From assembly GCA_000091205.1 (NCBI GenBank), contig AP006487.2: DNA of 64,000 nucleotides; one strand, written 5' to 3'. A model generated the notes under the pieces. That model was not told the DNA's origin and searched no databases. It saw nothing but the letters and a program-made list of their open reading frames with translations. The stretch is from Cyanidioschyzon merolae (lineage: Eukaryota). Shown here one piece after another: positions 20,271 through 60,557 of the stretch; the first letter of the stretch is position 1; every line of letters starts with the position of its first letter. Both the position numbers and the translations under genes were made by a program.

Positions 20271-20506
20271 CATTGTCATCGAACATAGGTATGGCATAGC
20301 GTGGACTCCTGCATGTAGCGACGTCGCCGCCGCCGCCGCCGGCGGTGCGCTTTAGAGACACGCCGAACAACCCCAACGACAAGGCTGCTTCTGTCTGTAG
20401 CGTTTCCGCGTTCTGGTAGCCGTCAACACGTTTCGCTTCGTTCGATGTACAAAGCTTTCGACGGTGCAGCGAACGCTTTCCCGTGTCCATGAAGAAGCGC
20501 TTTTAG

Positions 20507-21592
<1,086 letters not shown>

Positions 21593-23465: not shown

Positions 23466-23659
23466 CGCAAAGGCCAATAAGGATGGTATGGAGAAGACAA
23501 CAGCATTTGAATATGTATGCCCGAGTTATAGGGCCCGTTCTGTTTTCTAGTCTTCCAACTCAATTGTGTTTCCCCTCAGATGCGGTGAATAGCAGGAGGT
23601 CGAAATCACGATGGCATGTGTTGTATAGCTTGCAGACGAGGTGACTGTAGGATATATTC

Positions 23660-24500: not shown

Positions 24501-24559
24501 GGGGTCCTCTGGCGAGAGCATAAAGGAGTAAGCTCATTTTAAAGAAATTAAGGGATGAG

Positions 24560-25215
24560 CCGGGATGTAAACTCCTGAAGGCCGAAATGGAGGAACGTCA
24601 GCGAAGCACTTCGGATATAGAAAAGCCCGGAGCGCTGTTCGAGCAGCAAATGGCACAGAGGGCACGAGTTCGAGGACTCCGTGCACTGGTGCGTTCAACG
24701 AGCTCCAACAAACGCATGGAGTTCGTGAACAGGGACGAAAACGCTGCTATCAATATCAGACGATTTGCGGTGCCAAAAACGGGACCCGATGAGCAGACCC
24801 GATCCAACGTTGTGGGGTCAGCGTCTCAAACTCGAATTGCATATGGATAAACAGAAACAGGTAGCAGCCGGCAGGCAGGCAGGCAGGCCGTGCAACACTG
24901 GAAGGCGGCAGCACGTCGGTATACATTGAGCGTAACGACGCGAAGCGTTTTCGCTCTGATAACCACATAGCCCAGTCGTCGTATGCTTTTTCTGAGAACC
25001 GTTTCTCGTGATAGTGAAACGCATCGCAGTGGTACTGGTTGCGAATACTTCGCCAGGAAGGGTTTAAAAATCTAGTGACAAGCTGGGGCGTCTCTCCACA
25101 CTCTTGAACGGACACCGGGGACGCCTCCAGTTGCAGCGCACAGTCGTATGAGCTGCTGCCGCGTCGCACTGTACTCTTAAACGGACACGTGGGACACCCT
25201 AAGTTGCAGATCGCG
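24560..25215 (+). pseudogene. TnpB/Fanzor-like relic, family I copy A (3' module plus non-coding tail)
   Basis: AQRARVRGLRALVRSTSSNKRMEFVNRDENAAINIRRFAV (D codon 24734-24736). It aligns at nucleotide level with the copies at 42.2, 48.7 and 54.8 kb. Downstream, ~24900-25215 shares diverged blocks with the tail of copy B (cgctct..catagcc; acggacacgtgg). Confidence 0.55.
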
Positions 25216-32400: not shown

Positions 32401-33700
32401 GGCAGAGAAAAAGCACCTGAAACAGAGCCGGATACACGAGACGGTGTACGTCAGGCCGAGCGAACATCAGCTGGCGAGAATATTGACGACCAGAGGATTG
32501 CAAAAGCGAGATTTCAGGAGCAAAATACCTCGATGTACATCCGGGAATGTCCGGTGTTCGCACAGCGCCCAACAGCTTGGTGATCAACGAACCTTTGAGG
32601 GAATCGCGCAGTACTTCGTGTAAACACGGATCTGAAACGCTGAAGACTTGCGATGGAAAACAACAGTGACCATGACAGCGTGTATTTCATCCATGTTTGA
32701 AGCAAGACACTTGTATGAGACGGTTCAGCAGTCCAGAATGGCTGCCATGCCCCATATATACACATGGAACGGTTTTCCTAGAAATTCATGAACGAATATC
32801 CTGCTCCGTAATTCGACTTGACGATGTACCGACATGCAAAGCGGCGTCCTAGGTGCTCTAGCCTAGACGCCCGCCCCCGAAGACCTGCACGGTGTCGCCC
32901 TGCGAGCCTTATTTACCGCACCATACATCCCTGGGATATTTATGATGGCTCCGGCCTTGAAGATCACGCGTTTGTGTGTACGTCAGCAGCGTCGATGCGT
33001 CGCTCTAAAATCCATCTACACAGGTGTTCACGGAATGCTCGGCATTTAAAAGCGAGCCCGCTCAACTTCGTATACAATGTGTCATGCATGTAGACTTGCA
33101 TTTTCGAACGAGATCCGTCATTGGGGCACCAGCTCGAGACTGATCAAGCATCAAGCTTCGTGCACGGTAGACAGGCTGTGCTATGAACGGTTCGGCATTC
33201 GACGCCAGGCGCTGAACCCAGACTTGCGTCACCGTACAGTGCGTTTAGGGTTCCATCAGCAGTGCCTCGTTCTTTGCGTTCGTCCTGCAATTCTCCAGGT
33301 CATAGAAGCGTATCCGCAGCATGAAACTGTTCAGTGTGAGCCGAAGTAGCAACATCCAGCATAGGCATTGAAGCGCGTGTCCTATAGATTCCAAGTGCCT
33401 GTGAGCGCTCCCGCACCGGCGATGCACCTTCGTACGAGGACGCGCTCCATACCAAGTCAGCCGAAACATTTCCTATGAATCAAGTGAGGCAGAACTCGCG
33501 ATTTGTGCACTAATCCAGAAGCACGCTTTCGGGAAAGCTTAGCAACAGAATTCGGGCGATTATGTTTTGGTCTATGGTCGAGTCTTGGCTGGGAATCCCA
33601 GCTACGCAATGGATACCGACGTCAGGGAAAGCGCTAACGCATACTCGGCACTCTACGGATTATATGAACGAGCCGTTGCCTCCAACAGGGAATATGGATG

Positions 33701-34087
33701 TATCCGGCGAGATATAGAGACCTGGTGCGGAATGACTAGTGATTTCATAGGCACCGTTGAGGTAGTCGTCTGCAGGGAACTCCTGCTCGTGTCGCAGAAG
33801 CTGCGTTACCGCCACACCAGCATCGAGTGGTATCCGGCGAGATATAGAGACTTGGTGCGGAATGACTAGTGATTTCATAGGTACCGTTGAGGTAGTCGTC
33901 TGCAGGGAGCTCCTGCTCGTGTCGCAGAAGCTGCGTTACCGCCACACCAGCATCGAGTGGTATCCGGCGAGATATAGAGACTTGGTGCGGAATGACTAGT
34001 GATTTCATAGGTACCGTTGAGGTAGTCGTCTGCAGGGAACTCCTGCTCGTGTCGCAGAAGCTGCGTTACCGCCACACCAGCATCGAG
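33701..34087. repeat. 130-bp tandem repeat, ~3 units
   Basis: tatccggcgagatatagagac starts at 33701, 33831 and 33961. Units are >95% identical by eye. 130 is not a multiple of 3, so the repeated peptide in minus-strand ORFs (MKSLVIPHQVSISRRIPLDAGVAVTQLL..) shifts frame between units. Confidence 0.95.
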
Positions 34088-36087
34088 CAGGCAAGGCCCT
34101 CCCGGGCGATTCCCGGCGCTGTGCGCGAGCCCCGATCGTATGCACGCTGCCGCTGGCTAGCGTCTGAGCCCTGGTACGTTCTCTCCTCCGTCTTGTGCAG
34201 ACGATGCAGCGAGCCGTGCCTAGGATGCTTCAATCAAGTACTGGCCAACTTCGGACCGGGCGCGGGTGCTCGTCAGGGACGACTTTGTGGAAAGCTGGGT
34301 CTCGGCGTTGCAGTGCGTTCCACAGCTGTCAATCGTTGAGTGCTGAGAACCTTTATCAGCCCGCATCTCTGGCGCTGAGAACAGAGAATCGCCAAATCCG
34401 TCGTCTGGTAACGGTGGAGCCAGCGGGCGCGTCTCTTGGACGCACCGTGACAGGGCGCTTCCGCCCGGTTTTGGCGTTGGAACGCGTCGCTGCTGAGGCG
34501 GTCGGTCGGCTGGAAACGCGCAGCTTCACTTACCGCCGAGCTGGATGTACTTCAGGCCTGCTCCAGCTTCTTCTGGATGGAAAAAAAGCTCTAGATGATA
34601 CATAGATTCACCGGTTGGCTCCAGTTCTGCAGAGCGTGTGATGGAAGGCTCTCGCAGAGCTGAGCTGGCCGACATGCTGGCTTGCTGAAACAACTACTGT
34701 ACGCACCAGTGCGGTGTGTTGGTACACTGGCGGAAAAACGTGTGACGATTCGAGATGAAACCAGCAGTGGATAGTTCAGGCTCTCGTGATTAGAATATAC
34801 GCCGTGGGACTTGAAAGTATTTGAGCTCGTCTCCCTCAGGACATGTGCGGCTTCCTGGGTCTGAGGTTTGGAAACGAAGGACCGCAACGATGGGGCATTG
34901 CGCTCTCGAGAAACAAAGCACATTTCATTCGCTACGTTTCCATCATCACGCAGAAACCAGGACGGTAATCAGTACCGAATATCGGGCACTGCGCTTTGGA
35001 AACGACGCAGATTTCGTTGGTTATGTTTCCATTAACACCAAGAAACCATACTGGTCTTTGGTACTGCGGTCGAGGCTATGACACTGCCTGTGGCCCGACA
35101 ATGCCACCATGTTGTCGCCTGGCGGAGCACTTTCCCCTGTGATGCCAATGGATATTTTGTTCTTTTGTGCTGGGCGATCGATGAGCGTACCCAGAGTTCC
35201 CCGCATGCGCAATGATTACCAGCAACTGCAGGAGAGATCTTAGGCATGGTCGGGACGCTTCGGTGTACCTCAACATTCAGAGCAGCTTCTATTTTCGTGC
35301 ATTCGAGCTGAATCGATCCAGCGTACCTTCGGGCGTTGAGTCTCGTGTAGGACGCATGCTGCACCGGTGGACGTGCAGTCGCAGTCGCTTCGATGGCATC
35401 GGCTCGATACTCCGGTGTCTGGTGGAACCTGCGCCGGCGTTCTTCGCAAGCGTGGCCCGAATCAACAGCGAATCCCAAAGAGTCCAGCAAGGACGCGTCC
35501 ACAAATCTAAAGCGTAGCATCCAGTGTTCTACCAAAAAGTGCCAACCTTTGCCTGGTACACGGCGCTGGATCCCAGGAGCAGGCATGAACAGCACCGGCC
35601 TGTTTAAGAGTCCTCGAGTTCTGGCTCCGTGTTCAACCTCATAATGCGCAGCACTAGCGCAACTTTTTTGCCTGCAGCAATGCGAAGGAAAAGCGATAGT
35701 CGCAAATGTGGTATTCTTGAAAGGCCATAATTTTTACCGCATACGCAGATACCGTGAAAGCGTGCTGAGAAGCTATCTCAGGAAATGCACCGGAACACCC
35801 GGAACTCAACTGCAATATTCCCCAGCATATTCTAGTGGAACGTGCATACCAACCAAAATTCGATATCCAAGCAACGACAGGTTGCAGAGCGCAGACGCAC
35901 CAAGTTCCGCGCTTGCCGCACGAGTCTGAATTTGAATGCCACTGATCCGCCCAGCTGGACAACGCATTCGCGCTGCAAACGCTGAGCGAGCTGGTACCGG
36001 TGCCCGCAACGTTTAAACTGTGCTGAGCAGCGCGATACCATATAAATCCACAGCACGCGCGTTGAGCCACTGTCGGTGTCGGCGGTA

Positions 36088-40277: not shown

Positions 40278-42009
40278 CCGCAGTCACCGAAAGCCTTCAC
40301 AAACGCAAGCACAATGCGGGCGCTGGAACGCACCACCGGAGGTGCTCAGCTTCCGGAGGATCCCGATACACGTCGCGATGGCGGACACGCGGGCATTCGA
40401 ACAGCGGCCGCCGTCGGCATCGCGCACACCCAGCGCACACACTGCAACGGCCGGGGTGCGGCGGCGCTCATCAGGGACGGATCAGCGCCGGCGTGCTGTC
40501 CTCCGGCGCGGGGCTGTCGACAGCCGTAGAGCGCCCGCCGTTCCCGCGGCTGGAGAGGCGGCGGCGCTCGCAGTTCCCGCTGCACCCTGGTGCGAGTCCG
40601 GGAGCCTGCACCTTCAGGTTGCAGCACTGAGGGCGGTGGGGATCGGCGTGGGCGCGCCCAGCTCCACAGCATGGCAGGTCTCTGCATGGAGTGCATTTGC
40701 ACAAGAAAGTCGCATCGAGGACTCTGCGTATCTGGACTGCATGTGCGCTTTGCCGATACACGTATACCAGAATAAGACGGAACAGGTCCACGCAGCGAAC
40801 ACGGGCGTGCCTAATAAAGTTTTGATCGCTTCCCGTAAGAGTCAACACAAGATTTTGTGCGTATTTTTGTGACTTGTTATTTTTATTGCTCTTTTTTTGC
40901 TGAATTTCAATGTGCTGGTCTCTAATGTGTCTGCAGCTCCGTTTGTCAGCAGTCGAAGAATGCTGATGGCAGCGTTCTCCTCCCGAGTTCGCAGCATTCG
41001 ATTCTCATTCACGCATTTCGAACAGGCAGGCTGAAGTTGCGATCTCGGCTGCGCTTGTCATGATCATATCCTTTGTAGACAGCCTCAGTGCGCCCTTTGC
41101 AGCATGAACCTTGGCCACGGTCAGTGATTACCGTACGTGCACGACACGACACCTCTTCCGAAAAATGCCCTGTGCCGCACCAAGGAATGCTTCGCTGATC
41201 GGTGTGCGCGTTTGACTGGTACAGAGGGCCCGATGTGTTCCCTGTATTCGTTTTCGCGCCCGGTGCCGTGTTCTCCGATCATGGGCTTGCTCATGGCGAT
41301 CCTTCCAGGGTGTACGCTATCCCCTGCACGCACACGCTGTAACATTGGATGGGCGATTTTTTTGGAACGCGATCTTGTTCATGATGGAGCGGTTGGCGGA
41401 AGGGAATTCCAGGATGGTGAGCAATAGAAAAAATTTAGAGTCGTTTATGTTCAGTTCCTAGAACGCAGTGACATACTCTCTACTCTGAGTAATCGCCGCA
41501 ATGACTGGTGTGCAGCACGAGTCGTTGCTTCCGCTGTGAGCGGCGAGGCTGGATATCGGCGTCATGGCTGGTGCCTGCTCGCAGACGGGTGCTGCGATGG
41601 TCACCTGGCACCGCTTATGGCACCCAGAGAACCGCTTCTGCTGCACGTTCGAACAGACGACGGAGCCAGCGGACCTCTGTGACGACCTCGAAAGCTAGCC
41701 AGGTATTCCAGCTCCTTTGGCGGTGTTCCGCGACGGTTTCATCTCGGCAATGATGCAGCGGATGCACCTCGAGGACAATGGAAACCTACGCTTATCGAAG
41801 TCTGAGCGCGTCTTGTCGCAACGAACTCCAGAGACTGGCATGTTTCGCGTCTCGCATGATACGCTGGCCTCGTTTTAATGTTGCACCTCATTTGTGTTCC
41901 GCTTGCAGGTGCGTGTCATCAAGTGCTTCCTCGCGGGTTATAGCGGACGTGTTCAAAGAGCGTCCATTTTCAAAAATAAACTATCCTAGGGAGATGTGTA
42001 TGTATGAAA

Positions 42010-42690
42010 ATCGGGGATCCTGATGTGCTAGTGTCGCCGGTTTCAACAGAAAAAACGAAAAATTCTCTTCTCACCGACCATCGAGCGAAGGAGAGCAAGT
42101 TTTATGAAAAAGTAGAAAAAGAGAGGAACGGCGGGTGAAAAGTTTTTGTATGCCTGATGTGACGATTACGAGACTGTAACGGGACAGAGGGCACACTGAC
42201 GAAGGCGCCTTGCATTGATGAGTCCCATCAGAGGCAGCAAACGCATGGAATTCGTGAACAGAGACTTGAACTCCGCCATCAAAATCAGACCATTTGTGTT
42301 ACAAAAGGCGAGGCGCGCGGAACTTACGTTAGCGAAAGGTTTGGGACAGCCTCTCAGGTTCGAAGTGTACACGGGACAAATTGAAACCGATATCTGGTTG
42401 CTGGTCAGAAAAAGGCTTCGAGGCGCCTGTGAGTGCGTATCATTTTCCCCTGTCGAGCCGACGCTCTCTGTGGTGCGGCATAGCCGTTCTGTCTCCGTGC
42501 AAGGACCGCATCGGCCCTGTAGACGCTATCGCCGACGCTCTGGGCATGCACTCGGCGCACGATAGAACGTACGGAACGACCATTATATCCGAGAGAAAGT
42601 ATGGGTTACGGAACGTGGAAGTAAGGCGTGGAATGAGGGATACCTTACAGCGCGCTGATGACGAGCGCAGAATCCGAGAACGCTCGCCAC
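42010..42690 (+). pseudogene. TnpB/Fanzor-like relic, family I copy B (5'-truncated, plus tail forming the left palindrome arm)
   Basis: SKRMEFVNRDLNSAIKIR (D codon 42263-42265). Upstream, ..ccatcgagcgaagg.. aligns with copies C and D. Downstream conserved block LVRKRLRGACECV. The tail from ~42452 is the left arm of the palindrome. Confidence 0.5.
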
Positions 42691-42987
42691 AGCAACCACT
42701 TTGGCATTTTTTCACTGACAAAACGTTTACTTAGGCCAGCGTTCTCCGATTATGCGCTTTTTTCTTTTCTTTCTTTTTTTTCAGTGCGAGGTGAGGTATC
42801 CATCAACCCCCTACCTCCATGTTACATTACCTATACTTCGTCTCGGATATTCTGGTCGTTTCATACGTCCTATCGTGTGTGCCTAGTACCTGCCGTTCCG
42901 TATTCGCGTCTGCGCTTGAACCGCTGGAGCAGATAGCTCATAGGGCTAAAACAGCTTTTCTATACCACAGAGGGCGTCGGCTCGAGG
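42452..42987. repeat. Large imperfect palindrome (inverted duplication): arms ~42452-42688 and ~42734-42987, 45-bp centre
   Basis: The reverse complement of 42795-42878 matches 42558-42644 (cacgatag.acgta..gaacgacca..atatccgaga..aagtat.ggt...gggatacc). It extends inward (gcgcagaatccgagaacgctcgcc 42665-42688 vs revcomp of 42734-42757) and outward (ctgtcgagccgacgctctctgtggt ~42450-42474 vs revcomp of 42961-42987). It also shows as YFLSDIMVVPYVLSC / YFVSDILVVSYVLSC in opposite-strand ORFs. Confidence 0.85.
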
Positions 42988-42989
42988 TG

Positions 42990-45900
42990 TGCTTCATCCG
43001 ACGTAGAATCGGGTCTCGTCGTCAGTTTGTGCTCGTACAGTCTGCGGATGCAGGCTTGCCTTCGCTGCACGACACGCTGGAGAAACTTGGTTGTTAGGAT
43101 GAATTCTGGGAGCTGCCTCTCTCCTTCGTGATCATGCATGGAATGCATTGTTGTCGGTTGGCTATGCGGATTTGTGCTTGACACCCACTACAGAAGGAAG
43201 GCGTAGAGAGCACTAAACCCGTGTGCGCATCCGATCCGCTGGACCTTCCGCCTAGAAGGTAGCACGTGAGTTTGTTGGCCACTAATGAGCACTGAGGATC
43301 TGTTAGCGAACCATCAGTTGCCAGTGCTGCACTCAGAGTGAGTGTCCGGCCTTCGACTATCACGGTGTTGCCGAGCTGCTGCTGTCCTTCGAGGAGCTCG
43401 CTGCGCTCCTGCTTCTAGCGCGGCCACTGTAGGCCTAAATATGTCAGCGTCTCGGGGATTTCGTCTCGATAGCAGGTACAGTGTGACTCCCAGTGCGATT
43501 CCAGGGTTCCTATCCGGCTTAGAGCCGGTGCTGGTAGCCAGGAGCCACCAACGCTGATTTTGGCGAGCCACTGGGTACCTCGAGCAAGTCCCGGGAATTC
43601 CAGCGCCTCCCACCAGTAATTGCATGTGTATGCTAGGTTGTAGTTCCGGTATAGAGTCAAGCCGGCGTTACTCGCGCGACTGGTACTGTATCTACGTTCC
43701 CATATTGTTGTTCGGACCGTTCGCTTGAGGCGACGGGAGAATTCTATATTCCTGGGGAATGATTGGGTAGCGTGTTTTCGCCTAAGAGGCGCTTCAGCCA
43801 AATCTGCGCTGATTTCATCCAAGTGATCTTGCGGTGCGTTGGGGTCTGCATGGATATCCGACTGAACCAGGTGTTCATGGTTGGCCCTTTGCCCCATATG
43901 CGTGCCCGGCAGCCTGCTGCTATCGCCTCTGTCGAGGGTATTTGGAGTTCAAGTCCGAGTGCCAGCAGGTTGGTTGCTCTGCTCTGCATTGAGCATCCAA
44001 CTACAACGAGTCGCATTGCCCTGTTGGCGGCTGTCTGCAGACGCGAGGCATTTGTGTGCTTCATGCCGCACCATTCAGCACCACAGGTCGCAGGCTGGAT
44101 GATACATATCCTTAGTGCGCTGGTACGGATTGCTAAGGGGATAGAGGGGTCGGATAAGAATGGGCATGCGATCGCTGTACGTCTATGCATCTTGGCGATC
44201 ATCTCGTTAACGTGTGCCTTTTCGTCGAGCGTCGGCGTGAGACAGACCCTAGGTAGCGATATTTTTCCACGATTGGAATTTCCTGATTCTGCAACCGCCA
44301 CGAGCGATTGCGAATGCTCTGCGAGTCTCCATGGATGGCCATGACGCCGCACTTCGATGCTCCTATGCTCATCTCCCAGCGATCGGCCCAGGCGCTGACT
44401 TGTTCCATGCTAGCCGCAAGCGTTTCCGGGGCGGGTGCCAACAGCACGACATCGTCCGCAAATAGAAGGCCTGCGAGGCGGTTCCCATATGGGCGCTCCC
44501 CATCGGGCATCTCCACAGTCTATCCACGGCACCTCAAGCCCGTATTGTCTGTAGTTGTTAAGCAGATCGTTGATGAAGATGTTGAAAAGGAGCGGGGATG
44601 CAGGATCGCCCTGTCGCAGTCCACGGCGGATTCTTATCGAAGGGGTTCTTGAGCCGTCGCCTAGTCGGATGCGCATCCACGAGTCTGCATAGAGCGCACG
44701 GAAGAACGCTAAGCACTTTGCGGAGACTCCGGCTCGTTCCATCTTCATAAATGGAGCCTCATGCGGGAACGTGTCAAAGGCCTTTTGGAAGTCGACGAAG
44801 CATACGTAAGTTGGTTGTTGGTCGCTAATGAAGCGACGTTGCACCACTTCAATGAGGGTCAGGGCATGGTTCATGCACTCCTCGTGGCTCCGGAATCCAG
44901 CCTGTTCTGGGGCGAAGAACTTGCGTTCCTGGAGGCCGCTGTGGATACGGTTCGTGAGCATGGCGCGAAGTAGCTTCATGATTGACGGGATGAGGCGCAT
45001 AGTCCGGTAGATGTTCATGTCTGTGTGTGTGTGGGAGTCCTTTTTGAGGATCGGTACGACCTCGACAGCCCTCCGTACATCTGGGATGTACGCTTCTTCA
45101 AACATGCGTTGAATGAGCTCCAGAAGGCGTTTGCCTAAGATTGTGTCAGGTTCATCTGGTATCGATGGTGTCCCTGTTGTCCCGTCTTTTGGGGTCGCCA
45201 GTTTCATCCACTCCGCAGGGATACCGTCGATGCCAGGTGTTTTGCGATTGCTTGAGCATAGCAGAGTCCGAACAGATTCAGGCCAGAAAATTGGGTCGTT
45301 CCATTCCGGTACCGGGTCGAGGCGCGGTAGTTCTGCAGCATATCGGTGCCAATAGATTCGGTCTTAGCAGTGCCCAGTTGCGTCTTCATGTAATTCTGTG
45401 CCGTGGTCCGTCCAGGCCTCATTCACTGAGGCACGCTCCGTCCTCAGCGCTTCCTTTTAACAGTTGGTGTGAGCCCCAAGCACTTTCTTGGTGGGTCCAG
45501 TCTCGATCGGATGTAGCCTGGGGTTTCATCTTCGTTGGTGCTCTTCAGCATAGATTCCGCCAGGGAGGCCATTTTGCGGTTTCGATCCTCTCGTTTGTCT
45601 TCTCTGGAAAGTTTCTTCGTTCTTTTGATAGCTTCCTCATGTTGCGCCTGTAGCGCCGGTAGCGCTGCCTTCGCTTCCTTGTCTCCGGCGTTGGCGCGTA
45701 TGGCGGTGCGGTTGACAATCTTGTTGAGTCGGTGGCATTCATGAATCCGAGTTTTGGTACGTCGTTTGAGGTACTGCGGCTTGCTACTGTTGTGTTCAGG
45801 TGCAAGCAGTCCCAATTTTCTGGCAATCTTCTGATTCCCATCTACAAACTCGCGTGCCAATTGGTCTGAAGATTTGTATTCACGGCTTTTCGGATCTTCA

Positions 45901-46950
45901 GCGCTGTGAGCAGGTGCCTGGGATTGGCGACGGCTTTCTTGAGTTCCAGCTGGGGTGCCCTTTCGGGGGATACCTTGTGATGGGCTCGTTTGGGAGTTCT
46001 TCTTTCTATTCTTCTGTTTTTTCTTGCTGGTCTACTTCTTCTTCGGGCTCTTTCCTGAGCTGCTTTCTCTGGTTATTTTGCATTTAAGGGGATCATGAGG
46101 TTTCTGTGTCTCTTTCTCCGTACCTCGTTGGGTCTCTTTTCCAATTGTAGAGTCCTCGACTTGTATCAGTTCTTCATTACTGTACTGGTAATTCGATATC
46201 TCGTGGTTAAATACCGAGGCGATCCCGCTAATATTCCATGATGCGAAACCTATCGAGTCGTAGCGCATAAGGGAATAGGAGTAACGCTGCGGTACTCCAG
46301 AGATACGTTGTCGATTTAGACGCAGCTTCCACAGGGTGTGTGAGAGCACATGCCACCATTGCCTCCTGCATTCCAGTCGTTCACTGAGTGTCTGCCGCAG
46401 CGCTAGCGTAGAATCAGATGTACATTAGTCAAGGTCGATTCGAATGCGAACTTTGTCTTTCCGGACGCGTGAAGCTACCCTCAACCATTGGGAAAAGTCT
46501 GCAAACCACCATTTCAGCGGCTTTGTATCCGCTCCCCAAACACATAGGCGGGCAAGTCGCTTATTCCACTTTCGACAGTGAGCATACTGCCAGCTGTCTT
46601 CCAAAGTATCCGCCGAGATTGTTTCCAAAGTTGAGGTAGGTACTCAAGGTAGAAGGTGAAACTGAGCCCGAATTCAGGGATGGATCCAGTATTTGTGCCC
46701 GAACCTGCAGCGTTGTTTCGGGAGCAGCGGATGACTGCGCTCAGAATTATCGTCATCATTCTCTGCTACTGCCTACGCCCCTCCGTTCGTTGCGGTCAAG
46801 GCCCCTGGCGTGGACTTCCTTCGCAGTCGCTCAAGCACCCCGCGTTAACCCACTTTCAGAGGTTCTCCGGAAAGACTAGACCCCTTAGGCGGACGTGGTT
46901 TGTGGGGCTTTTAAGATAGTGGTTCCTTGATAAATAGTTTGCGACTAGTT
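42990..46950 (-). mobile_element. Non-LTR (LINE-type) retrotransposon relic: APE-like endonuclease plus reverse transcriptase, multiply frameshifted
   Basis: RT blocks on the minus strand: PGIDGIPAEWMKL, NIYR.., FDTFPHE, RRGLRQGDPASPLLFNIFINDL, GLLFADDVVLLA (D codon 44456-44454), YLG, PATCGAEWCG. C-terminal Cys motif: CTCYRDEIPETLTYLGLQWPR. Endonuclease-like fragments at 46.0-46.9 kb (FYLEYLPQLWKQSRRILW, VWGADTKP, NHEISNYQ). The 3' limit is uncertain. Confidence 0.8.
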
Positions 46951-47159
46951 TGCATCGCGCTCGGTGAGCGCACCTCGGAGATCGGGCAGGCATGAGACGC
47001 TACGCGCATGCCACTGTTGAAGGGAAACACGTGACCTTGATCAATAGCGTGTTGTTCTGCTGTAAAAGTCGGATTCCCGTTGAGGGCGTAGCAAAGTATA
47101 GTTTTCAGTTCATTTCTGTTTCAACCCTCAAGTAAAAATACTCGAGTGTTTTTTCGCAG

Positions 47160-47167
47160 TATATAAG
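47160..47167 (+). promoter_or_regulatory. TATA-like box (TATATAAG) ~210 bp upstream of the family I copy C start codon
   Basis: Direct reading, inside an A/T-rich block (47100-47340) that is unusual for this window. No functional evidence. Confidence 0.2.
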
Positions 47168-47376
47168 AGAAGCGTTCAAAGAGCATTCTTTTTAAAAAAA
47201 CTAAAAAAAGGAAAAGTATGTAGGAGCAAGTCCACGATCCTGGAGGCCCACTGTCGCAGGCTGCCAGAAAGAAAACAAAAAACAGTGCCGAGTCCAGAAG
47301 AACAGGGAGAGAGAAGAAGAACCGAAGAGGGGAGGCCCTACGTCGAAGGTGGCAAGAAAGACGACTGTACAACGAG

Positions 47377-48980
47377 ATGGTGGTGAAAGCCTTTCTTCTT
47401 GGACATATCAAGGATCCCTACAGGGAAAAGTTGCGAGACGCTATCGAAAAACGTGTCGACTCGTATTCCGAGAGTATTATCAAGGCGTCGTCAGGGCTGA
47501 TGCATTTGGCGAGGGAGATGTATCGCGACATGGCGCACATGGAAACAGTCGAGATTCCGGACGAGTTTCTCGACATGACCTTTATTTGTCAGCTAATGCT
47601 TGGTACAGCGGAAACGCGGAAGGAAAATGTGCTAGTGCACGCCCTCCACGAAGAACATACCTTTTACAGCTTCAATGGTACTCGATACAAGGTGACGGAG
47701 ATATTTACATCTATGGGGCGATGAAGTACCTCACGAATCTGAAGAACCATTTGACAATGAACCTCGAACGTTTCACGGTACGCGCCGTGTGTGCACTCTA
47801 CCCGGGCCTATCTCGCAAAGGAAAATGGGCGATTATCAATGGCATCACGAAAGATCGTAAGCATGAAGATGAGACGGATTTCGTTGACAAGAAGGCGTCA
47901 AACGAGAGCACGAATGAAGCTTCTGTAATCCGTGCTGCTATTCAAGAGCACCGTGCAATCCTGGGACTGGATTATCCAGCAGAAAAGATATCAGAGTTGA
48001 AAAAAGATAAGGAAACATACGATCGCCTCATTCTACGGTATTTCGTGTTTCTGGACCAAGAACTCGAACGCGAGGCGGAGATGAAGGTGAATAGGGGAAA
48101 AATGAAGAGTGGGAGAGACGGAAGGCTGTCCTAACGGGGAAGCGCTTCAACGTGGTTCCATTGTGCAACATCAAGTCAGATTTTGTGACCATCGGCTCCG
48201 GCGTCCTTTACGGCATCATGAAGCAGATCAGTCCGGAGTTCAGTGTCAGCAGGGAGGACTTCACCGGCGAAAACCGGGAGACGTACTGCAAGAGTATCTT
48301 CGATTTCAAACGTCTGAGAGTGAGCAAGCAAAAGTTGTTTACTGGGATGATCGTAACCGATGGAGTAGAATTGTGTGCAAACTATCGGCGGTTGAAGAGA
48401 GATCGGCCAGTCCCTCCCTCGGCTGCGCCCGTGACGAAGGATCAAGAAAACAAAGAGGTGTATCCTGCGACGCAGGAGGTGGAGGATAGAGACCTTGTCG
48501 TTGACGTGACCAAGGATGAAGAAAGGGAGGAGGCGGATCTTGCGACGCAGGAGGTGCAGGATTACGACCTTGTCGTAGGCGTGGACCCTGGGAATACGAA
48601 TGTCCTAACCATCGCAGCACCGAAGCGTGCGGAAGATGGAAAAGTGCCAGCGGAATCCTGAAGATATACAAAAGTACGGACCGCTGACGGAAGGGCGAAT
48701 GGAAAGGAGAGCGAAAGTTCGAGGATTGCTTGCATCAGTAAGTACAACCAGTGATGGCAAGAAACGGATGGAGTTTGTGAAGCGAGGTTTTAATGCCGCA
48801 ATCAATCTACGGAGATGTGCGGTGCTAGAGAATAAACCTCCAGACTGGACAAGAAGGAACCTTGTTGGACAATCTCTCAAAGGTGAACTATATGAGAGAA
48901 AGCTGGAAGCAGTAGTGGGTAGCCAGTCCAAAAAGACGGGGGGGGGGCGTCTGCACGTCAGCTGGAGACGATTTGTCTAA
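47377..48980 (+). pseudogene. TnpB/Fanzor-like gene, family I copy C: longest copy, N-terminal ~400 codons retained, three frame changes and an internal deletion of the RuvC-II/zinc-finger segment
   Basis: Four consecutive ORFs in frames 1,0,2,0: 47377-47724, ~47700-48134, 48152-48661, 48627-48980. RuvC-I-like [17 protein letters not shown] (gac 48584-48586). RuvC-III position KRMEFVKRGFNAAINLRR (G instead of D, ~48786) lies only ~67 codons later. A 60-bp internal duplication gives [14 protein letters not shown] / [15 protein letters not shown]10 homopolymer at 48938-48947. Confidence 0.6.
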
Positions 48981-49117
48981 GGCGCGTTCGCCGCCATTGC
49001 TGCGTACTGCCGGCGTCGTTCGACTTCGAACGGCGTTCGTGACCGAAGCTCATCCGCGGATCCAGCTGCACGCCGCTGCTTCATTCAGGACGCGTTGTAT
49101 AACAACGTCAGGGAACC

Positions 49118-49438
49118 ATGACGAAAGGAACATCTTCCAAGGGTCGCCGTCACGGCAAATCACATACACTCTGTATCCGTTGTGGACGACGATCGTACCA
49201 TATCCAGAAAAGTACCTGTGCGAGCTGCGGGTACCCGTCGCCGCGAAAGCGGACTTACAACTGGAGTTTGAAGAGCAAGCGGCGACGCACTACAGGAACT
49301 GGGCGCATGCGGTACTTGAAGACGGTTGCTAGACGGTTTCGAAACGGGTTCCGCGAAGAGAACACTCGTAAGGCGATAAAGAGGACAGTGGCTGCCGCTC
49401 CCGCACAGGAGAGCGGCCAGGAAGCAGCGAGCTCTTGA
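49118..49438 (+). CDS. RPL37: 60S ribosomal protein L37 (eL37)
   Basis: [68 protein letters not shown] is the canonical eL37 sequence with its C4 zinc ribbon. Confidence 0.95.
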
Positions 49439-54350: not shown

Positions 54351-54569
54351 AGGTAGTGCAAAGAACACACCGTACCGGTAAGTCGCGCGTGCCGTGGAGG
54401 CGAACGCTGTCGTTCATTCGGCAGCGCTCGAGGCTGGCACCGACTTGCCCGACTAGATGCACTACTTTTTGCTCTTTGACCACAGTGAGATTGATTAGTC
54501 AGGTGTGTGTCATCAAATGCCTTATTCGGTTTATAGCAGATGGGCTGCAAAGTGCGTTCATTTAGAGAA

Positions 54570-55060
54570 ATAGAGAATATAAGATATAGGTATGGAGATT
54601 GAAGTCGAGGATCCTGGATTGCCTCTGTCCACGGGTGTCGGAAAAGAACGGGAATTTTCTCATCTTTTCGACGATCGAGCGAAGAAGACCAAGAAGAGGG
54701 GAGATGGACCACAAAAATGTGTTTGCCCGACGGGGCGATGACGAGAATCTAATCGCACAGAGGGCACGAGTTCTGGCAATCCCTGCATTGATGCGTTGCA
54801 CCAGATGAACTGCATAGAACGGCTCGTGAACGGAGACTTCGACGTCACAAGCAATATCAGGAGATGTGCGGTGCTGAAAACGAGACTCGCGGAGCTGACG
54901 CGAACTAAATTCGAGTGGCAGCCTCTAATACCCCCAGTGTGCCTGGATAAAAACCGCAACCGATGGCAGTCGGCGGATAGAAAAAGACTGGGCGGTGTCT
55001 GCGCGTGGGCAGCTATATGTACTCTCGATGGTGGTAAAACATTGCACGTTTTATAAATCA
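54570..55060 (+). pseudogene. TnpB/Fanzor-like relic, family I copy D (most degraded)
   Basis: ILDCLCPRVSEKNGNFLIFSTIERRR aligns with [21 protein letters not shown] of copy C. AQRARVLAIPALMRCT then CIERLVNGDFDVTSNIRRCAVLK (gac 54835-54837) aligns with KRMEFVNRDENAAINIRRCAVL. The tail block is RKRLGGVCAW. Confidence 0.45.
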
Positions 55061-56596
55061 TATGCCGAAGAGCAAGTTCGATTTGCAGCGTATGGAACCT
55101 AGTAGCGTTTCTTAAGCAAGTCTGGTCGTTTTCTACGTAATCAGAAGCATTTGCTCCGCCATCGCTACCTGAATGGAATCATTGATCCTGCATCATCAAC
55201 ACTGATTCCGTTGCACAGGACGTACGTAGAGCGCAATGATCACCGTGTGACGCCATGGCTCGCCAAAGCTCCAGGATCCGAGCACTGTGCAGGGACCAGC
55301 GAAGCTGCCGACTTTGTGGTTCCTCAAATGATAACACCTCGATTCGCGTCGAACGGTCTTCTGATCCACCAAAAAAATTTGGTGGGTCGTGATTTTGCGT
55401 TCTCCAAGCACGCCTCCATACACTGCTGCATCAGAGAACCCACTCGAAATGATGCCGTGTCCGTTATTGAATGACGCTTCCGAGCACTGGGCCTGCATGA
55501 AGCCGGTAGTCGATCCCTGAACGCTTCATGCGCGGACACGTACTATGCATAAGACTCGGAAACTCCGGGCTGCACAGGTCCATTGTCTGATGCTTCCAGC
55601 ATCAAAGTCGATCCCCGCTGACTGCCTAGATGACAAGCGAGATCCGCGTACAAGCCCGAGATCCCGTGCATCCAGCATCAAACGCGATTTCGCTCTACTG
55701 CCCAGAAGCGCAAGCATGAAAGCGTCTTGCTCCCGTATTCGACTGTTCCCGACAATGGTCTCGGGCATATGTTTGCTCCCGAATGAATACACCTTCGTGG
55801 AGCGCGCAGCATAGTGCTTTCTTTCCATCGCGCAAGATCAGAAAAGTCTAACCAGTTCTACCACGGATGCGTGTCGCGCGCTGGGCGTCGTACACGACCA
55901 CGATGCCGTGCATCCACCGATTCTCATGATGCAGACACGGTGTATCGAAGGAGTCGATTCTGAGTAGCCGAACGGTGTCGATACCAGCGCCTGGACCTCA
56001 CCATTTCCGCGCACGCTTCTTCCTTCTTCTATGCCAGCAGCAGCGTTCCTACATAAAAAACCCGCGCCATGAGACCTCTATCCGTCTACTGGGATAGCAT
56101 AGGCCGGCCGCACTTGCTTGGCCGGGCACATGCGCTCGATTCGAAATCCTGTCAAAGCACAGTGCCATCCACGTAACCTGCAAAAGAGCGGAGCTTCTCA
56201 GTAAAGCCTGTGTTTGCCGCCTGCCCGAACGAGGTATCAGAAACGTGCTCACCGACGCGCTGCGCACCGGCGCCTTCCAGCGCTGGAAGCAGTGCGCCTC
56301 GAGTGCACGGGTGCGGCGCCTGCCTGCCTGCCTGCCGGCTCCTCTCTATTCCGCTAGCGAACCAAGCACCCTGCTCTTTCCCCAGACACCTTGTCCACTG
56401 TGGAGGCCGCTCAGCTACAACTCCGACGTGCAGCGTCTGTCCACGATCAACACGAGTACGCACCTTGTGAAGGGTACAGTCGCGAGATACGTATGCTGGG
56501 CGCCAGCGCTGGCAGGTAGGCGGCGCCCCGCGCATTCTCTGCACACCCGAGGCGCGTTTTCGCGACTTTCCGTTACGTGAAGTTGGTGTCGGGTTC

Positions 56597-57661: not shown

Positions 57662-59139
57662 TGCTTCCTGGCAAGGCTAGCGCAGGTCTCGTGCCTGTGG
57701 CTGCGTTATCCACATGGGGGCCAGTGCCTTTCGCCCGCGTCTCGCTCTATGTGCGGCGACTTTGGGATCGCGCTCGCCTTTCACGCCAGTGTGTGTGTAT
57801 CTATGTGTGGGTTGCCCTGTCTTTCATGCAGGGCTTGCGTACCATGCGGGCGTTTGTTGCCCTGCCCTTCGTAGTTCGCATCAAGTTGGAAAGACGCGAG
57901 TTTCAAAAAGCTCCGGACTGGATCAAAGCACATGGCCAGGAGTTCCCGAACGAGCACGTAAAGTTTGAAGCTGCGCGTTGTTGTCTCTCGGAGGTCGAGA
58001 CGGACAGAAACGGATTTGTTTGGAAAGCCGACCAGGGCGCATTGGTCACGCAGGGCGCCTCGAGCGGAGTCCTGTTGCACACGAGAACGCTGTCGAAGCC
58101 GAAAGGAGCATTTTCGAGCCAGAGCGCCATCGGGGCTGTTGCGCGTAAAACGGATCTTGCGACTTTATGCAGCCGCTGCTTGCATTAAAAATAAGCCTAC
58201 TATGATCGTCTGCATGTCCTCGGTCGTGCGAAGATGCACGGCAGCTAGCTGGGTCTCAGCGGCGACAGTTTACGCTGGCCTGGTGGCATCGGCCTGTAAC
58301 CGCAGGGCACCCGAAGGGATGGGCATTTCGGCCGCGCTCCGGGGACATGGTGATAAGTCCCCGCATTCATGCGTGCCGAGCTTCCCTGAACGTCGGTAAT
58401 GATCGCGCACGTGAGCATTCCGGAGGACAGACTCAACAATCCAGCACCGTGAAAAATGGACGCGTATCGCCGGGACTCGAGCCCCGTGGACACCACGGCC
58501 AGCTGCGGTTGCCGTGGCAGAGCGCGAGCGGTGAGCGCCGGCTCCTTTTTGACGAATGCTTGACCCTGAGCCTGTCGATTTGCGTTCGAGAACCGCGAAC
58601 ACTCGCCGATGCTCTGGTTACGGATGCATCATCACAGCGCCACACGGCGCTGAACCGAAGGCACTGCAACACTGGGGGAGTGCATTGGCGTGCGGACGAT
58701 TCGCTGGGGGTTTCGCAAGACGTTCGGATTTGCTCGTCATGAAGCAGGTTGGGATCTGGGTCTCTCATATGCAATCGCCACTGGGCATCGAATGGATTTG
58801 TTGACCTCGAATGGGGTTCGGATCCCGCTGGCTGGGTAGCTCGGCTACGCGCGCACTGGGCGCGCTTGTGCTGCTCCGGAGCACGGACTACCGAAGCAAC
58901 ACAGCTGGACGCAGGGCTTGGATCCCGTCAGGCCAGAGAGGGCCGGCTTACTCAAGCGCGTTTTGAACACGTTGCAGGCGGTGAGCTCGAGGCACAATGT
59001 CTTCACATGCTGATCCTGAAGAAACTAAATTCACGCGCGGGGATTTTGTGTGCTGCAGACGAGGCTGGACACCGCAGCGACGACCTCCACCAATGGGAGA
59101 TTAAAATGGAGCACTGGGCTGCTCGCTATGTACGTGGAT

Positions 59140-60375
59140 AGGTTCTTCTCGACTTGTCTTTTCAGATGTAGAGCTGTGACTTTTCGAGAGCAGCAACAAG
59201 GGCTTGAGCACTCGTGTGTCGGTTTAGGATTCTCGGCCATAGTTTCAGAGTGGTTTTTTCGACGCTCTTCCACTAGGACTCGTTACATCACCGAAATCAA
59301 GACCATTCCCGATGTTCCGGAACTAGGGTTCGTAAACGAACCAATATTCGTCTCCAATGTGTACGTAAAGGTTTCCAATCTTCTCAATATCTTACTTTTG
59401 TAGCGTGCTCAAGCCACGTATGCTTGTAGTTTTGTCTCTTTCTTTCTCAAGGCAACTCATTGATATCGCAATGCTCGCCATTGCTTCGACGAGGGAAAAT
59501 GCTGGACGTCGTCCCTCGGAGACTTGTTCACGAGTTCATACCGACAATACGCGCAACATGCCACTTCGAATCATGCATTGCTTTCAAGCGGTACACTCAA
59601 TGCTCTCTGCGGCGGTCAACGAAACAGGATTCGCTATCTGCCTCGTACGTCTCACAGGACATACTTCCGGAGGCTGCAGTCTGTCTCTATTTTGCCTGGA
59701 ACGTTGTCTAGATTTCGGAATTGAGTCATCCGGGTGTCCGTGTCGAGTGCTACGTACGTCACTGTTTTGCACGAAGGAAGCGTCAAGGGATCGAATACCT
59801 TCGACTTGTTATCCAATCTGGATTTACCCCCCGATGTTTGTTTCATCACGAACAACATCGTGTTCCACCAATACGTTATCGAACGGAACAGGGCGCGGTT
59901 GGACTTGCAGCCATCAGCGCCGTCGCCGAGTACATCGCTCAGATCAAGCACGTGATCGCAGAGCACGGCGCCGGGTGCGGAAACTGCAATGGATATCAAG
60001 GGGAATCTTCTCTTCTCCGAAATGGCAAGTAGCCTGCGATGAAGCACGGGATCGCGCGCTGTAGGACGGCGCTCGGAGGACGAGGAGATATGGTCGATGC
60101 ATAGGCACACTTGGCAGCGGTCAAATGTCACCGCTGTGAAGCGCGGACCCCAGCTGTACACAAAAACAGATGAAAACAGCAAGCGAAGCGCGGATCGCGA
60201 TTTTCACCTGTGCATGGTTTGCGTGACCAGCAGCCGGACGCAACGGAATCGGAACTCGAATGCCGCCATCAACAACCCGCGAATGCTGAGAACGGAACCG
60301 AAGACTCACGAGAGACCAGCATATGTAGATCAGCAGATAATCGAGAAGGAAAGAAAGTAGTCTCAGAAAATGCAC
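59140..60375 (+). pseudogene. TnpB/Fanzor-like RuvC nuclease relic, family II copy 3
   Basis: In order: VSEWFFRRSSTRTRYITEIKTIPDVPELGFV; VNETGF; CFITNNIVFHQ (RuvC-I position, N codon 59854-59856); AEYIAQIKHVIAEHGAG; NVTAVKRGPQLYTKTDENSKRS (resembles the v.v.E.yTSKtC..C block); HLCMVCVTSSRTQRNRNSNAAINN (C-x2-C plus RuvC-III position, N codon 60253-60255). Several frame changes. Confidence 0.55.
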
Positions 60376-60557
60376 TCAGAATCTGGTATTGGTGATACGA
60401 GCACGTGATCAAAACGCTTGCGTTCTCGCCCGCGTCAGCAAAGTGATCGCGCGCATCGTTCCCCCACGCTGACACGCGTGTCCAGCGAGCTGCCTGCCAG
60501 GCACGCAGACGCGCACGCATGGCGGCGGATCGCGAAGGCGCCACCGCCGCGCTTCGG

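Follow-up and report, generated by a model that had tools for sequence, protein, structure and literature searches.

Fanzor1-type relics upstream of RPL37 and other Cyanidioschyzon merolae genes, and a polar position bias of the family I (CMe-1A) element

Host genes and element relics in the window

The window analysed here is a 64,000-nucleotide stretch of Cyanidioschyzon merolae 10D chromosome 5. Its gene RPL37 (eL37) begins with the ATG at 49118, the position given in a first-pass annotation of the same DNA and borne out by Pfam (PF01907 Ribosomal_L37e, 2.4e-25) and by complete identity with C. merolae 10D BAM79382. More generally, proteins identical to those of C. merolae are encoded by this DNA. 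Pfam also agrees with the start codons and identities given there for the DIM1 (ATG at 20519), DEAH helicase (25277), PP2C (54289) and DCC-family (60724) genes; the ATGs of THOC1 and a PAK-kinase gene lie at 18395 and 40277. Among these genes we found relics of two Fanzor1-type element families and of a LINE-like retroelement:

12-210, + strand: family II copy truncated by the window boundary (nhmmer, profile positions 1164-1371)
3690-5049, + strand: family II copy
18944-20299, - strand: family II copy 1
22182-23545, + strand: family II copy
23546-25003, + strand: copy A, from an older lineage, ~1.45 kb long; end predicted, +/-60 bp
31868-32640, + strand: diverged family-I-like Fanzor fragment
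40781-41700, - strand: family II copy, 5'-truncated
41883-42511, + strand: family I copy B, shortened by internal deletion, with the 3' region kept; ends approximate
42707-46951, - strand: LINE-like retroelement relic
46952-49044, + strand: family I copy C, a Fanzor1 element of CMe-1A type, pseudogenised
48981-49044, + strand: non-coding 3' tail of copy C, with terminal hairpin CGTCGTTCGA-CTTC-GAACGGCG and GT-rich end
49045-49117, + strand: host spacer between the end of copy C and the RPL37 ATG (74 bp)
49118-49438, + strand: RPL37 (eL37)
54499-55090, + strand: family I copy D, a short copy B-like derivative
59084-60451 (+~20), + strand: family II copy 3 (nhmmer family II profile)

The relic next to RPL37

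Copy C was delimited by tblastn and blastn. The intact 752-aa relative P0001 covers its positions 47311-48869 across three frames, in segments that are 57-78% identical, while blastn to L001 and many other loci sets the limits of the element at 46952 (5') and ~49034-49044 (3'). The ORF carries two frameshifts and has lost ~aa 503-674 of full-length P0001, the part with the VDEFRTS segment; VGVDPGNTN is kept, and the RuvC-III aspartate is replaced by glycine (KRGFNAAINL versus NRDFNAAINI of relatives). An intact ORF with the RuvC catalytic residues (RuvC-I D, E and RuvC-III D) is absent from copy C, a relic that is no active nuclease. Its 5' edge abuts the 5' side of the LINE-like relic, which is missing from the earlier annotation. 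This LINE-like relic contains an RVT_1 ORF (44410-45207; Pfam, 3.3e-19) and a zf-RVT-like C-terminal ORF (~43415-43897, motif CPCCG..ET..CPRW), and its stretch 42707-43965 is 89.5% identical to L001 8402-9667.

The last frame of copy C ends in a stop codon at 48978-48980. The distance of 138 bp to the RPL37 ATG that had been assigned to copy C is correct for this stop codon but not for the element, whose tail reaches ~49044 and leaves a gap of ~74 bp. This spacer is shared with no other element copy, and copy C is the sole case in the window of a 3' end close to a co-oriented ATG.

A 3'-end alignment of many independent copies showed that family I elements run ~64 bp beyond the stop codon, in the order GGCGCG..GCCGCC, ACTACTGTACAC, hairpin CGTTCGActtTCGAACG and GTTnnTGgtg; past this point the flanks diverge at once. 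GATG is frequent within the element end. This tail is kept in 25-31 independent family I copies, and its hairpin variants retain pairing, in two length variants that are out of register in the alignment. The fold energy of the tail was not better than that of shuffles (z 0.54), no Rfam family matched it, RNAalifold on 26 and 25 family I 3' ends returned no convincing consensus structure, and no promoter-like motif was recognisable within it. In characterised Fanzor/TnpB systems the guide RNA is encoded at the element 3' end and read outward.

Family I is CMe-1A

Pfam searches with the relic ORFs and their intact relatives gave no match and a PDB sequence search was likewise empty, so the Fanzor relationship is visible only by fold: the RuvC-containing fold is nearest to solved Fanzor1/TnpB/Cas12 structures. 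Intact relatives do carry the complete RuvC catalytic set (GxDPGxTN, VDEFRTS, NRDFNAAINI) of Fanzor1/TnpB nucleases such as Guillardia theta Fanzor1 (9cer) and ISDra2 TnpB (8h1j), and the structured-looking conserved 3' tail occupies the guide-RNA position of the characterised systems. Unlike those systems, the window copies are inactive relics.

Family I is CMe-1A, a known Fanzor1 family of C. merolae, with ~150 copies in the 16.5-Mb genome of strain 10D. Its copies share 78-87% identity across a core of ~2.75 kb together with a 5' module of ~650 bp, and no terminal inverted repeats, no ends shared between copy ends and no target site duplications were found in the family. The published description of CMe-1A (Bao & Jurka 2013, Mob DNA 4:12, PMC3627910), in the sections used here, gives an element of ~3 kb with copies ~80% identical, no terminal inverted repeats, no recognisable target site duplications, a ~635-bp 5' module that is also the separate repeat TE-N2_CMe, and some copies that encode intact Fanzor1. 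Size, identity, termini, the ~635-650-bp 5' module and the existence of intact copies all match our family I, which departs from that description in that the 5' module here resembles a LINE-like 3' end and copy C is a pseudogene; the same sections make no mention of position or orientation relative to host genes.

Position 9671 of L001 was considered as the element left end and rejected, as the upstream flanks are also repeated, with a ~650-1270-bp LINE-like module in either orientation; the 3' side of family I is for this reason known with more confidence than its 5' boundary and the distances on the 5' side. A tblastx self-comparison of the window was too noisy for direct use.

Other relics in the window

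Copy A resembles family I only in the C-terminal RuvC-III region at 24557-24817 (tblastn, aa 665-752). Protein homology stops at 24817, an nhmmer profile of the family 3' end matches 24658-24920, nucleotide homology continues to ~24920-24950, and the predicted end lies at ~24993-25003; ~1.25 kb of the unit is common to L015, L028 and L036. The downstream stretch 25000-25215 is matched in no other copy. The tail that had been placed 62 bp before the helicase ATG instead ends ~275-400 bp away.

The same profile matches copy B at 42200-42430, a copy common to L012 and L015b, and copy D, found by blastn to copies A and B, at 54760-55006. At its 3' end (~55090), copy D is separated from the DHDPS ATG by 1.5 kb, and its 5' edge (~54499) lies 210 bp from the ATG of the divergent PP2C (PTC7-type) gene, rather than the reported 281 bp. 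We considered copies A, B and D as 5'-truncated retro-copies and rejected this as a general reading, because copy A is a longer, older lineage and copies B and D, which retain 5'-proximal and 3' parts, are internal-deletion derivatives. The diverged fragment (tblastn with P0080 at 32000-32500, E 1e-14) sits within the long Oxa1-RING spacer, with no confirmed start codon adjacent.

Family II is a discrete 1.36-kb unit with only remnants of the C-terminal RuvC/zinc-finger region akin to family I. The 3' end of copy 1 is ~545 bp from the THOC1 ATG and its 5' end 220 bp from the DIM1 ATG, where 249 bp had been given; for copy 3, the 349 bp to the DCC-family ATG becomes ~250-270 bp. The copy at 3690-5049 ends ~490 bp upstream of a probable gene at 5541-6302 (+; codon score 0.063), the 5'-truncated copy ends ~503 bp from the PAK-kinase ATG, and the copy at 22182-23545 begins 590 bp after the DIM1 stop codon, with copy A directly following. 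In the copy truncated by the window boundary, the 3' end looks onto the PIP5K stop codon (598), ~388 bp away.

Position of the relics relative to gene ends

The first-pass annotation held that the relics sit just upstream of host start codons. This is real for RPL37 and other genes, but as a window pattern it describes a selected subset and does not exceed chance. Six further relics had been omitted (the family II copies at 12-210, 3690-5049, 22182-23545 and 40781-41700, copy B and the diverged fragment), one of them facing a stop codon. By our count, 4/7 divergent, 2/6 tandem and 1/6 convergent spacers of the window contain relics; within the window, gene-start spacers (6/13) do not differ significantly from convergent spacers (1/6; Fisher p=0.33).

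Gene ends around copies of both families on related contigs were subsequently compared. The family I sample comprises 41 independent copies on related (metagenome) contigs, 35 in a first set and 6 in a hold-out set fetched afterwards, mostly ascertained via an intact mid-ORF motif; the gene calls are ORF plus codon-score calls, few of which are verified by Pfam or orthologues. In the first set, 23 of the 3' ends point at a gene start and the other 12 at a gene end (p=0.09); the median distances are 119 bp to the ATG versus 559 bp to the stop codon. Under a null of uniform insertion into spacers sized as in the most compact relative, which depends on the assumed pre-insertion sizes, 14/35 copies end within 140 bp of an ATG versus 18.5% expected (p=0.0025). 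Five of the six hold-out sites face a start and 4/6 lie within 140 bp; one hold-out copy (L087-L089) abuts a stop codon.

Taking both sets together, the 3' end faces a co-oriented gene start rather than a gene end in 28:13 copies (p=0.028), and 18/41 3' ends fall within 140 bp of a co-oriented ATG versus 18.5% expected (p=1.6e-4). The plain 5':3' ratio of family I is only modestly significant (p=0.03-0.09). Element ends lie 0-33 bp from the ATG at L045, L053, L021, L070, L092, L085 and L008; at L045 the PEX10 ATG is 0-8 nt past the element end, and orthologues aligning with the protein from its first residue establish this start. Genes of a DEAD-box helicase and a Macro-domain protein also have their ATG within 30 bp of an element end. 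Further transposable elements (LINE fragments) pile up on the family I 5' side; in the sampled copies, none was found separating the 3' end from an ATG close to it.

Family II has no gene-start bias. Across its 27 independent copies the 3' end faces gene 5' versus 3' ends at 16:11 and the 5' end at 16:10, median distances to gene ends are ~440-630 bp, and an excess over the spacer-aware null is absent; the family I distances differ from these (Mann-Whitney p=0.002). Among the sampled copies, a 5' excess over the spacer-aware null is thus present for the family I 3' end and not for family II. The proposal that only 5' intergenic space tolerates insertions is unsupported as a general rule, given the family II ratios at distances of ~500 bp.

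Absence of the relics from relatives

The spacer between the PAK-kinase gene and RPL37 measures 8841 bp in C. merolae, versus 594 bp in Cyanidiococcus and 334 bp at a Cyanidium-like locus; likewise DIM1->DEAH is 3685 versus 113 bp and DHDPS->DCC 3063 versus 1280/426 bp. No family I, family II, LINE or Fanzor signal was found in 20 kb of syntenic Cyanidiococcus (L081) and Cyanidium-like (L082) sequence, and the element is also absent from the PEX10 orthologous loci. The 74-bp spacer shows no significant alignment to the RPL37 upstream regions of these relatives (103/500 shuffles score equally), which makes a MAFFT alignment of RPL37 upstream DNA with Cyanidiococcus/Cyanidium a weak basis for comparison.

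The relics had also been proposed as co-opted promoter or 5' UTR sequence. As an ancient co-option this fails, because the spacers at the Cyanidiococcus and Cyanidium-like syntenic loci are short and free of relics; of the suggested promoter targeting or co-option, a polar version survives, for family I only, in the 140-bp excess described above. It could still be that the relics upstream of RPL37 or other window genes are now necessary promoter or 5' UTR sequence under selection, as the mere 74 bp left before the RPL37 ATG would suggest, together with the later insertions of the 8.8-kb island, which all lie upstream of copy C and never between it and RPL37. We consider this very unlikely, since the orthologous RPL37 sites of both relatives carry no relic, copy C has diverged about as much as other copies (~80%) with no special constraint visible, and entire divergent spacers of this lineage are as short as 165-280 bp, so that 74 bp may hold a core promoter.

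Discussion

The explanation we favour, at about an even chance of being right, is that the relics are lineage-specific decayed insertions with a family I polar effect superimposed, likely via a survival filter. The two Fanzor1-type families inserted into spacers that had measured only ~100-600 bp; in spacers of this size any insertion is at most a few hundred bp away from the end of some gene, and with about two thirds of spacers holding a start codon, this by itself explains the window pattern and all of family II. On top of this, the family I 3' end, which would be the guide-RNA end as in Fanzor/TnpB, is over-represented 0-140 bp upstream of co-oriented ATGs, and RPL37, at 74 bp, is one instance. 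The most likely cause would be that insertions so near an ATG persist only where expression of the downstream gene is preserved, either where the remaining short spacer suffices as core promoter or where transcription out of the element 3' end supplies the 5' UTR or promoter. The family I polar effect is best read as one of survival or targeting that is specific to this family. The data show what the relics are, where they end, that the relatives lack them and that the statistics are polar; outward transcription and the selective filter are inferred.

In a stronger form, which we regard as quite unlikely, CMe-1A would persist preferentially where its putative guide-encoding 3' end abuts a host gene start. 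This could result from transcription out of the element end replacing a displaced promoter or 5' UTR, on which the host gene would become dependent, or from guide-RNA addiction, whereby a guide copied from the first bases past the element would target the host gene start region, and an important gene would lie open to cleavage once the element is lost, which would favour retention. In the homing model of TnpB in IS200/IS605, excision leaves a donor joint that the guide matches, and this model predicts a guide copied from the DNA directly past the element 3' end, which would give a relation between the 3' end and its flank.

The polar statistics also apply if family I actively targets, in fixed orientation, the 5' ends of transcription units, with nucleosome-free or transcribed promoter DNA as the target and closeness reflecting insertion preference without a survival filter. 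P elements of Drosophila, Tf1 of S. pombe, Ty1/Ty3 of yeast and mPing of rice insert preferentially at the 5' ends of transcription units, and P elements are reportedly enriched at heat-shock promoters. CMe-1A shares the enrichment at gene 5' ends of gene-dense DNA with these elements and is unlike them in that its bias is polar, involving only the element 3' end co-oriented with the gene, reaches 0-30 bp from the ATG and is found in one of two related families. The distances of 0-33 bp at seven loci resemble site choice more than drift, and the L045 and L053 junctions share GGTG|ATGGCGAC, a hint of microhomology with the element's GGTGATGG-type end. However, no common target motif was seen by eye in 27 flanks, one third of copies face gene 3' ends, and no transposition enzyme can be named for CMe-1A, for which we know of no TnpA-like transposase. 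Target site duplications and terminal inverted repeats are lacking here and likewise in the sections of PMC3627910 used. Active targeting is therefore unlikely in our judgement, and we give a similarly low weight to the reading that chance and compactness account for family I too, its excess arising from ORF-calling artefacts, non-independent copies or an ill-chosen null. The window-only test and the first-set 5':3' ratio are compatible with chance, GATG in the element end can lengthen called ORFs, and two short ORFs (L010, L042) are doubtful calls; however, the hold-out loci replicate the excess, 17/39 copies within 140 bp remain without the doubtful calls (p=2.7e-4), the PEX10 N-terminus is confirmed by orthologues, and family II lacks such closeness when passed through the same pipeline.

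For annotation, the lesson is that the relics are ordinary insertions, and that where spacers measure 100-600 bp, a nearby start codon is on its own no evidence of function. To our knowledge, the native role of Fanzor nucleases in eukaryotes is poorly understood. As a host, C. merolae is haploid, tiny and almost intron-free, and homologous recombination makes its editing easy. If the CMe-1A 3' end does lie at start codons beyond chance, outward transcription from the guide-RNA end, its effect on host gene expression and the constraint that nuclease and guide may place on element loss would be testable in this organism, and read-out dependence or addiction, if true, would link host genes and an RNA-guided transposon nuclease in a new kind of relationship.

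Fanzor1-type relics and host genes in the window

Self-comparison of the window revealed two diverged repeat families, and their relics were shown to be the remains of Fanzor1-type transposons. Family I has already been described in the C. merolae genome as CMe-1A, with about 150 copies of ~3 kb that are ~80% identical to the consensus, lack TIRs, have undetermined TSDs and share their 5' 635 bp with another repeat, TE-N2_CMe (Bao & Jurka 2013, PMC3627910); these described properties were all observed here too.

Family I features and adjoining LINE-like relic in the window
46952-49044, + strand: copy C, by three-frame translation against the intact metagenomic protein P0001 (752 aa)
Copy A: the C-terminus of an older, third lineage of ~1.45 kb
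Copies B and D: ~0.55-kb internal-deletion derivatives
31868-32640: family-I-like fragment in the middle of a 6.6-kb spacer
42707-46951, - strand: LINE-like relic with an RVT_1 ORF, abutting the copy C 5' edge

Copy C is 57-78% identical to P0001, segment by segment, with two frameshifts and ~aa 503-674 missing, and reads KRGFNAAINL where intact relatives have NRDFNAAINI. An 11-G run in its last coding frame (48941-48951; GGGAGG in relatives) is likely a slippage site in the relic. The Fanzor ORF also contains 75-bp (25-aa) acidic repeats ('..KDEE.EEA.PATQEV.D.DLVVD') in variable number, with two units in the window (48430-48579) and ~4 in L001, a locus on another contig (11146-11450); this stretch is disordered in the predicted model (pLDDT <50, residues 374-472). 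Pfam and PDB sequence searches returned no match for family I proteins. Family II is a discrete 1.36-kb unit with six copies in the window, one cut by the window edge, and its consensus keeps remnants of the same kind of protein ('GxGxG..PVKRMY', 'VDIxEHLT..C', 'CxxC' and 'RNRDSNAAxNI').

A LINE-like element, with an RVT_1 ORF and a zf-RVT-like C-terminus ('CPCCG..ET..CPRW'), adjoins the family I 5' edge in nearly every locus, so the published TE-N2_CMe module of CMe-1A may be a LINE 3' end. Most often a 5'-truncated LINE 3' end of ~650 or ~1130 bp lies there, oriented like the family I copy; the window and L001 (8401-9667) differ in that the LINE 5' side is at the edge and the orientation is reversed. 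Template switching, a chimeric retrocopy or LINE targeting of this junction are possible causes. Directly after copy B lies a 350-bp imperfect palindrome (42543-42894, 65.6% complementary) made of two LINE-like 3' ends, tail to tail, and in two further loci (L036 and L050) a LINE 3' fragment likewise directly follows the family I 3' end.

The long ORFs of the window are ordinary eukaryotic genes (PIP5K, Rsm22, SepSecS, LPA1, UBC, THOC1-like, DIM1, DEAH helicase, MoaE, Oxa1-like, RING protein, PAK kinase, RPL37, TFIIH-p62-like, PP2C, DHDPS, DCC1-like and metallophosphatase). Four window proteins are identical to C. merolae 10D proteins (BAM79371, 79375, 79382 and 79385) and CME157C is also matched, which places the window in chromosome 5 of this red alga. 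The gene map was based on a codon-usage score trained on long ORFs, which separated Pfam-supported genes from most other ORFs in the window, with RPL37 as the exception (-0.067). Two spacers hold tandem repeats: where the LPA1/Rep27-like and UBC genes diverge, a 77-bp unit (13889-15420; ~20 units, ~95% identity) takes up most of the spacer, and three 130-bp units (33700-34089; 97-98% identical) lie in the long Oxa1-RING spacer. Just downstream of the latter, 34478-34665 has 71% identity to Cyanidiococcus DNA near a called 132-aa gene, and a small candidate gene may thus exist at ~34.2-34.7 kb.

Distances to start codons and comparison with relatives

The first-pass annotation had placed nuclease relics just before the start codons of host genes. 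These elements do exist, and copy C is even closer to RPL37 than stated: its stop codon (48980) does lie 138 bp before the RPL37 ATG (49118), but the element does not end there. Alignment of the 3' ends of 25-47 family I copies from independent loci showed a conserved tail past the stop codon, closing with a hairpin and a GT-rich motif, with flanks diverging only after it, so that copy C ends at ~49044, 74 bp from the ATG. Several other figures had to be revised: copy A to the DEAH ATG (25277), ~275-400 bp instead of 62 bp (homology with any other copy stops at ~24920-24950; predicted end ~24993-25003); copy D 5' edge to the PP2C ATG (54289), 210 bp instead of 281 bp; the end of family II copy 3 to the DCC1-like ATG (60724), ~250-270 bp instead of 349 bp; and the 5' end of family II copy 1 to the DIM1 ATG (20519), 220 bp instead of 249 bp. 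The sample was also selected, comprising five of at least 11 relic ends in the window; the unlisted ones include a family II copy directed at the PIP5K stop codon, another 590 bp past the DIM1 stop codon, and the family-I-like fragment at 31868-32640. Two 37-bp direct repeats (25100-25136 and 25172-25208; ACTCTTRAACGGACAC..GGGACRCC..AGTTGCAG), 70-180 bp upstream of the DEAH ATG, are present in no element copy and may be what had been taken for the copy A tail, or candidate promoter elements.

Within the window, relics occupy 4/7 divergent, 2/6 tandem and 1/6 convergent spacers. Spacers with a start codon hold relics in 6 of 13 cases versus 1 of 6 for those without, and the upstream pattern is not beyond chance (Fisher p=0.33). 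We then compared the syntenic loci of Cyanidiococcus yangmingshanensis (L081) and of a Cyanidium-like contig (L082), whose RPL37 clusters with that of Cyanidium caldarium at ≥90% identity.

Spacer lengths in the window, L081 and L082
PAK/RPL37: 8841 bp; 594 bp; 334 bp
PP2C/DHDPS: 2308 bp; 980 bp; 599 bp
DHDPS to DCC1-like: 3063 bp; 1280 bp; 426 bp
THOC1/DIM1: 2124 bp; not covered; 275 bp
DIM1 to DEAH: 3685 bp; not covered; 113 bp

In the syntenic 20 kb of L081 and L082, no signal of family I, family II, a LINE or Fanzor was detected. This identifies the relics as lineage-specific insertions that postdate the split from Cyanidiococcus and went into 100-600-bp spacers, which are so short that any insertion sits near some gene end.

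Polarity of family I across independent loci

To extend the sample, 79 family I loci were collected by one metagenome scan with alignment of family I proteins, giving ~0.95 Mb together with L001. They appear to derive from C. merolae-like populations, as proteins identical to those of C. merolae are encoded on metagenome contigs of up to 103 kb from JGI, ENA and Logan. Element ends were set by nhmmer profiles, copies with the same flank were collapsed, TE DNA was masked, and host genes were called by the same ORF-plus-codon-score rule that recovers the window gene map.

Family II copies, which were not the basis of ascertainment, showed no significant bias, polarity or closeness to gene starts: of 27 unique copies, 16 had the 3' end towards a gene start and 11 towards a gene end, and for the 5' end the split was 16 to 10 among 26 copies, at median distances of ~440-630 bp. 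The proposal that only 5' space tolerates insertions is thus unsupported as a general rule.

Family I behaved differently from family II. Of 35 unique sites, 23 had the 3' end pointing at a co-oriented start codon and 12 at a stop codon, with median gaps of 119 bp and 559 bp, respectively (Mann-Whitney p=0.005), and gaps to ATGs were much shorter than those of family II (p=0.002). Fourteen of the 35 lay within 140 bp of an ATG, versus 18.5% expected (p=0.0025) under uniform insertion in random orientation with the spacer sizes of the most compact relative. Further loci, recovered through seven previously unused fragment proteins, yielded six new unique sites, five facing a start codon (gaps of 8, 27, 98, 120 and 343 bp) and one abutting a stop codon. 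Combined, the start:stop ratio was 28:13 (p=0.028), and 18/41 sites fell within 140 bp of an ATG (p=1.6e-4). Across ~40 independent copies, family I thus tends reproducibly to end, on its 3' side, just before a host start codon. The one new site at a stop codon, in L087-L089 (element end ~2750-2865), is a counter-example: a convergent Myb-domain gene of 437-443 aa ends there, with its stop codon at a gap of ~0 bp from the 3' end. On the 5' side, starts and ends of genes occur in roughly equal numbers, 43-2200 bp away, and this is where other TEs, mainly LINE-like 3' fragments, have accumulated.

Host genes at family I 3' ends

In the wider sample, family I 3' ends are followed by conserved host genes of ordinary kinds, whose ORFs are intact. 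Their sequences resemble ATP synthase beta, glycerol-3-phosphate dehydrogenase, a sigma factor, RPS4, glutaredoxin, NAD kinase, biotin synthase and PEX10, of which only PEX10 has a database name and Pfam support. PEX10 is also the tightest case: orthologues of 46-47% identity align from Met1 ('MA....VR.PVA.QAE..RASEKD'), placing the ATG 0-8 nt past the element's last conserved bases, and the orthologous loci have no element.

Two independent insertions, in L045 (~3570-3590) and L053 (~12270-12290), share the junction GGTG(TG)|ATGGCGAC, the host start codon in each sitting right at the element end. The family I terminus is itself often GGTGATGG, which points to microhomology at ATGG as the means of joining. 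A public 801-aa gene call (P0108), named glycerol-3-phosphate dehydrogenase with matching Pfam domains, is matched by a Fanzor-relic query over 18% of its length; it is probably a Fanzor C-terminal remnant fused to the dehydrogenase, since in L014 the element end (~4473 in L014/L015) lies ~6 bp before a 689-aa ORF. Another fused call of this kind seems to be P0107 (EAP30 domain).

Possible basis of the polarity

In characterised TnpB/Fanzor elements, the 3' end carries the guide-RNA sequence, whose transcription continues outward past the element boundary. The likeliest explanation of the polarity, of moderate probability, is a survival filter: insertions only tens of bp before an ATG would persist only with the gene still transcribed, requiring either a sufficient promoter in the leftover short spacer or transcription out of the element. 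If transcription were element-borne, only a co-oriented 3' end could supply the host gene, which would give exactly the observed polarity, and outward transcription would explain why no later TE lies between the family I 3' end and the ATG. In the case of RPL37, the remaining 74 bp may well suffice as a promoter, as some entire divergent spacers here measure only 165-280 bp. The conserved family I tail has a hairpin in two versions, both of which pair; the structural evidence is weak, since thermodynamic and RNAalifold tests of tail structure were not significant, and Rfam gave no match.

Active promoter targeting by family I, in a fixed orientation, would also place 3' ends before start codons, and we regard it as unlikely. 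Residual artefact or chance behind the closeness is likewise improbable: with two doubtful ORF calls dropped, 17/39 sites remained within 140 bp (p=2.7e-4). The first-pass interpretation had included co-option of the relics as promoter or 5' UTR sequence; in its ancient form this is excluded, because the host genes work without relics in syntenic relatives, and true domestication we consider very unlikely. That interpretation is partly supported: nothing within the window exceeds chance, and the support comes from the polar closeness of family I to start codons in the wider sample.

The elements themselves are already known as CMe-1A, and the accessible portions of the literature contained no mention that we found of their positional polarity relative to host genes. 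Its link to guide-RNA-end biology is interesting but unproven, and the polarity of family I constitutes a modest new example of promoter-proximal TE distribution.
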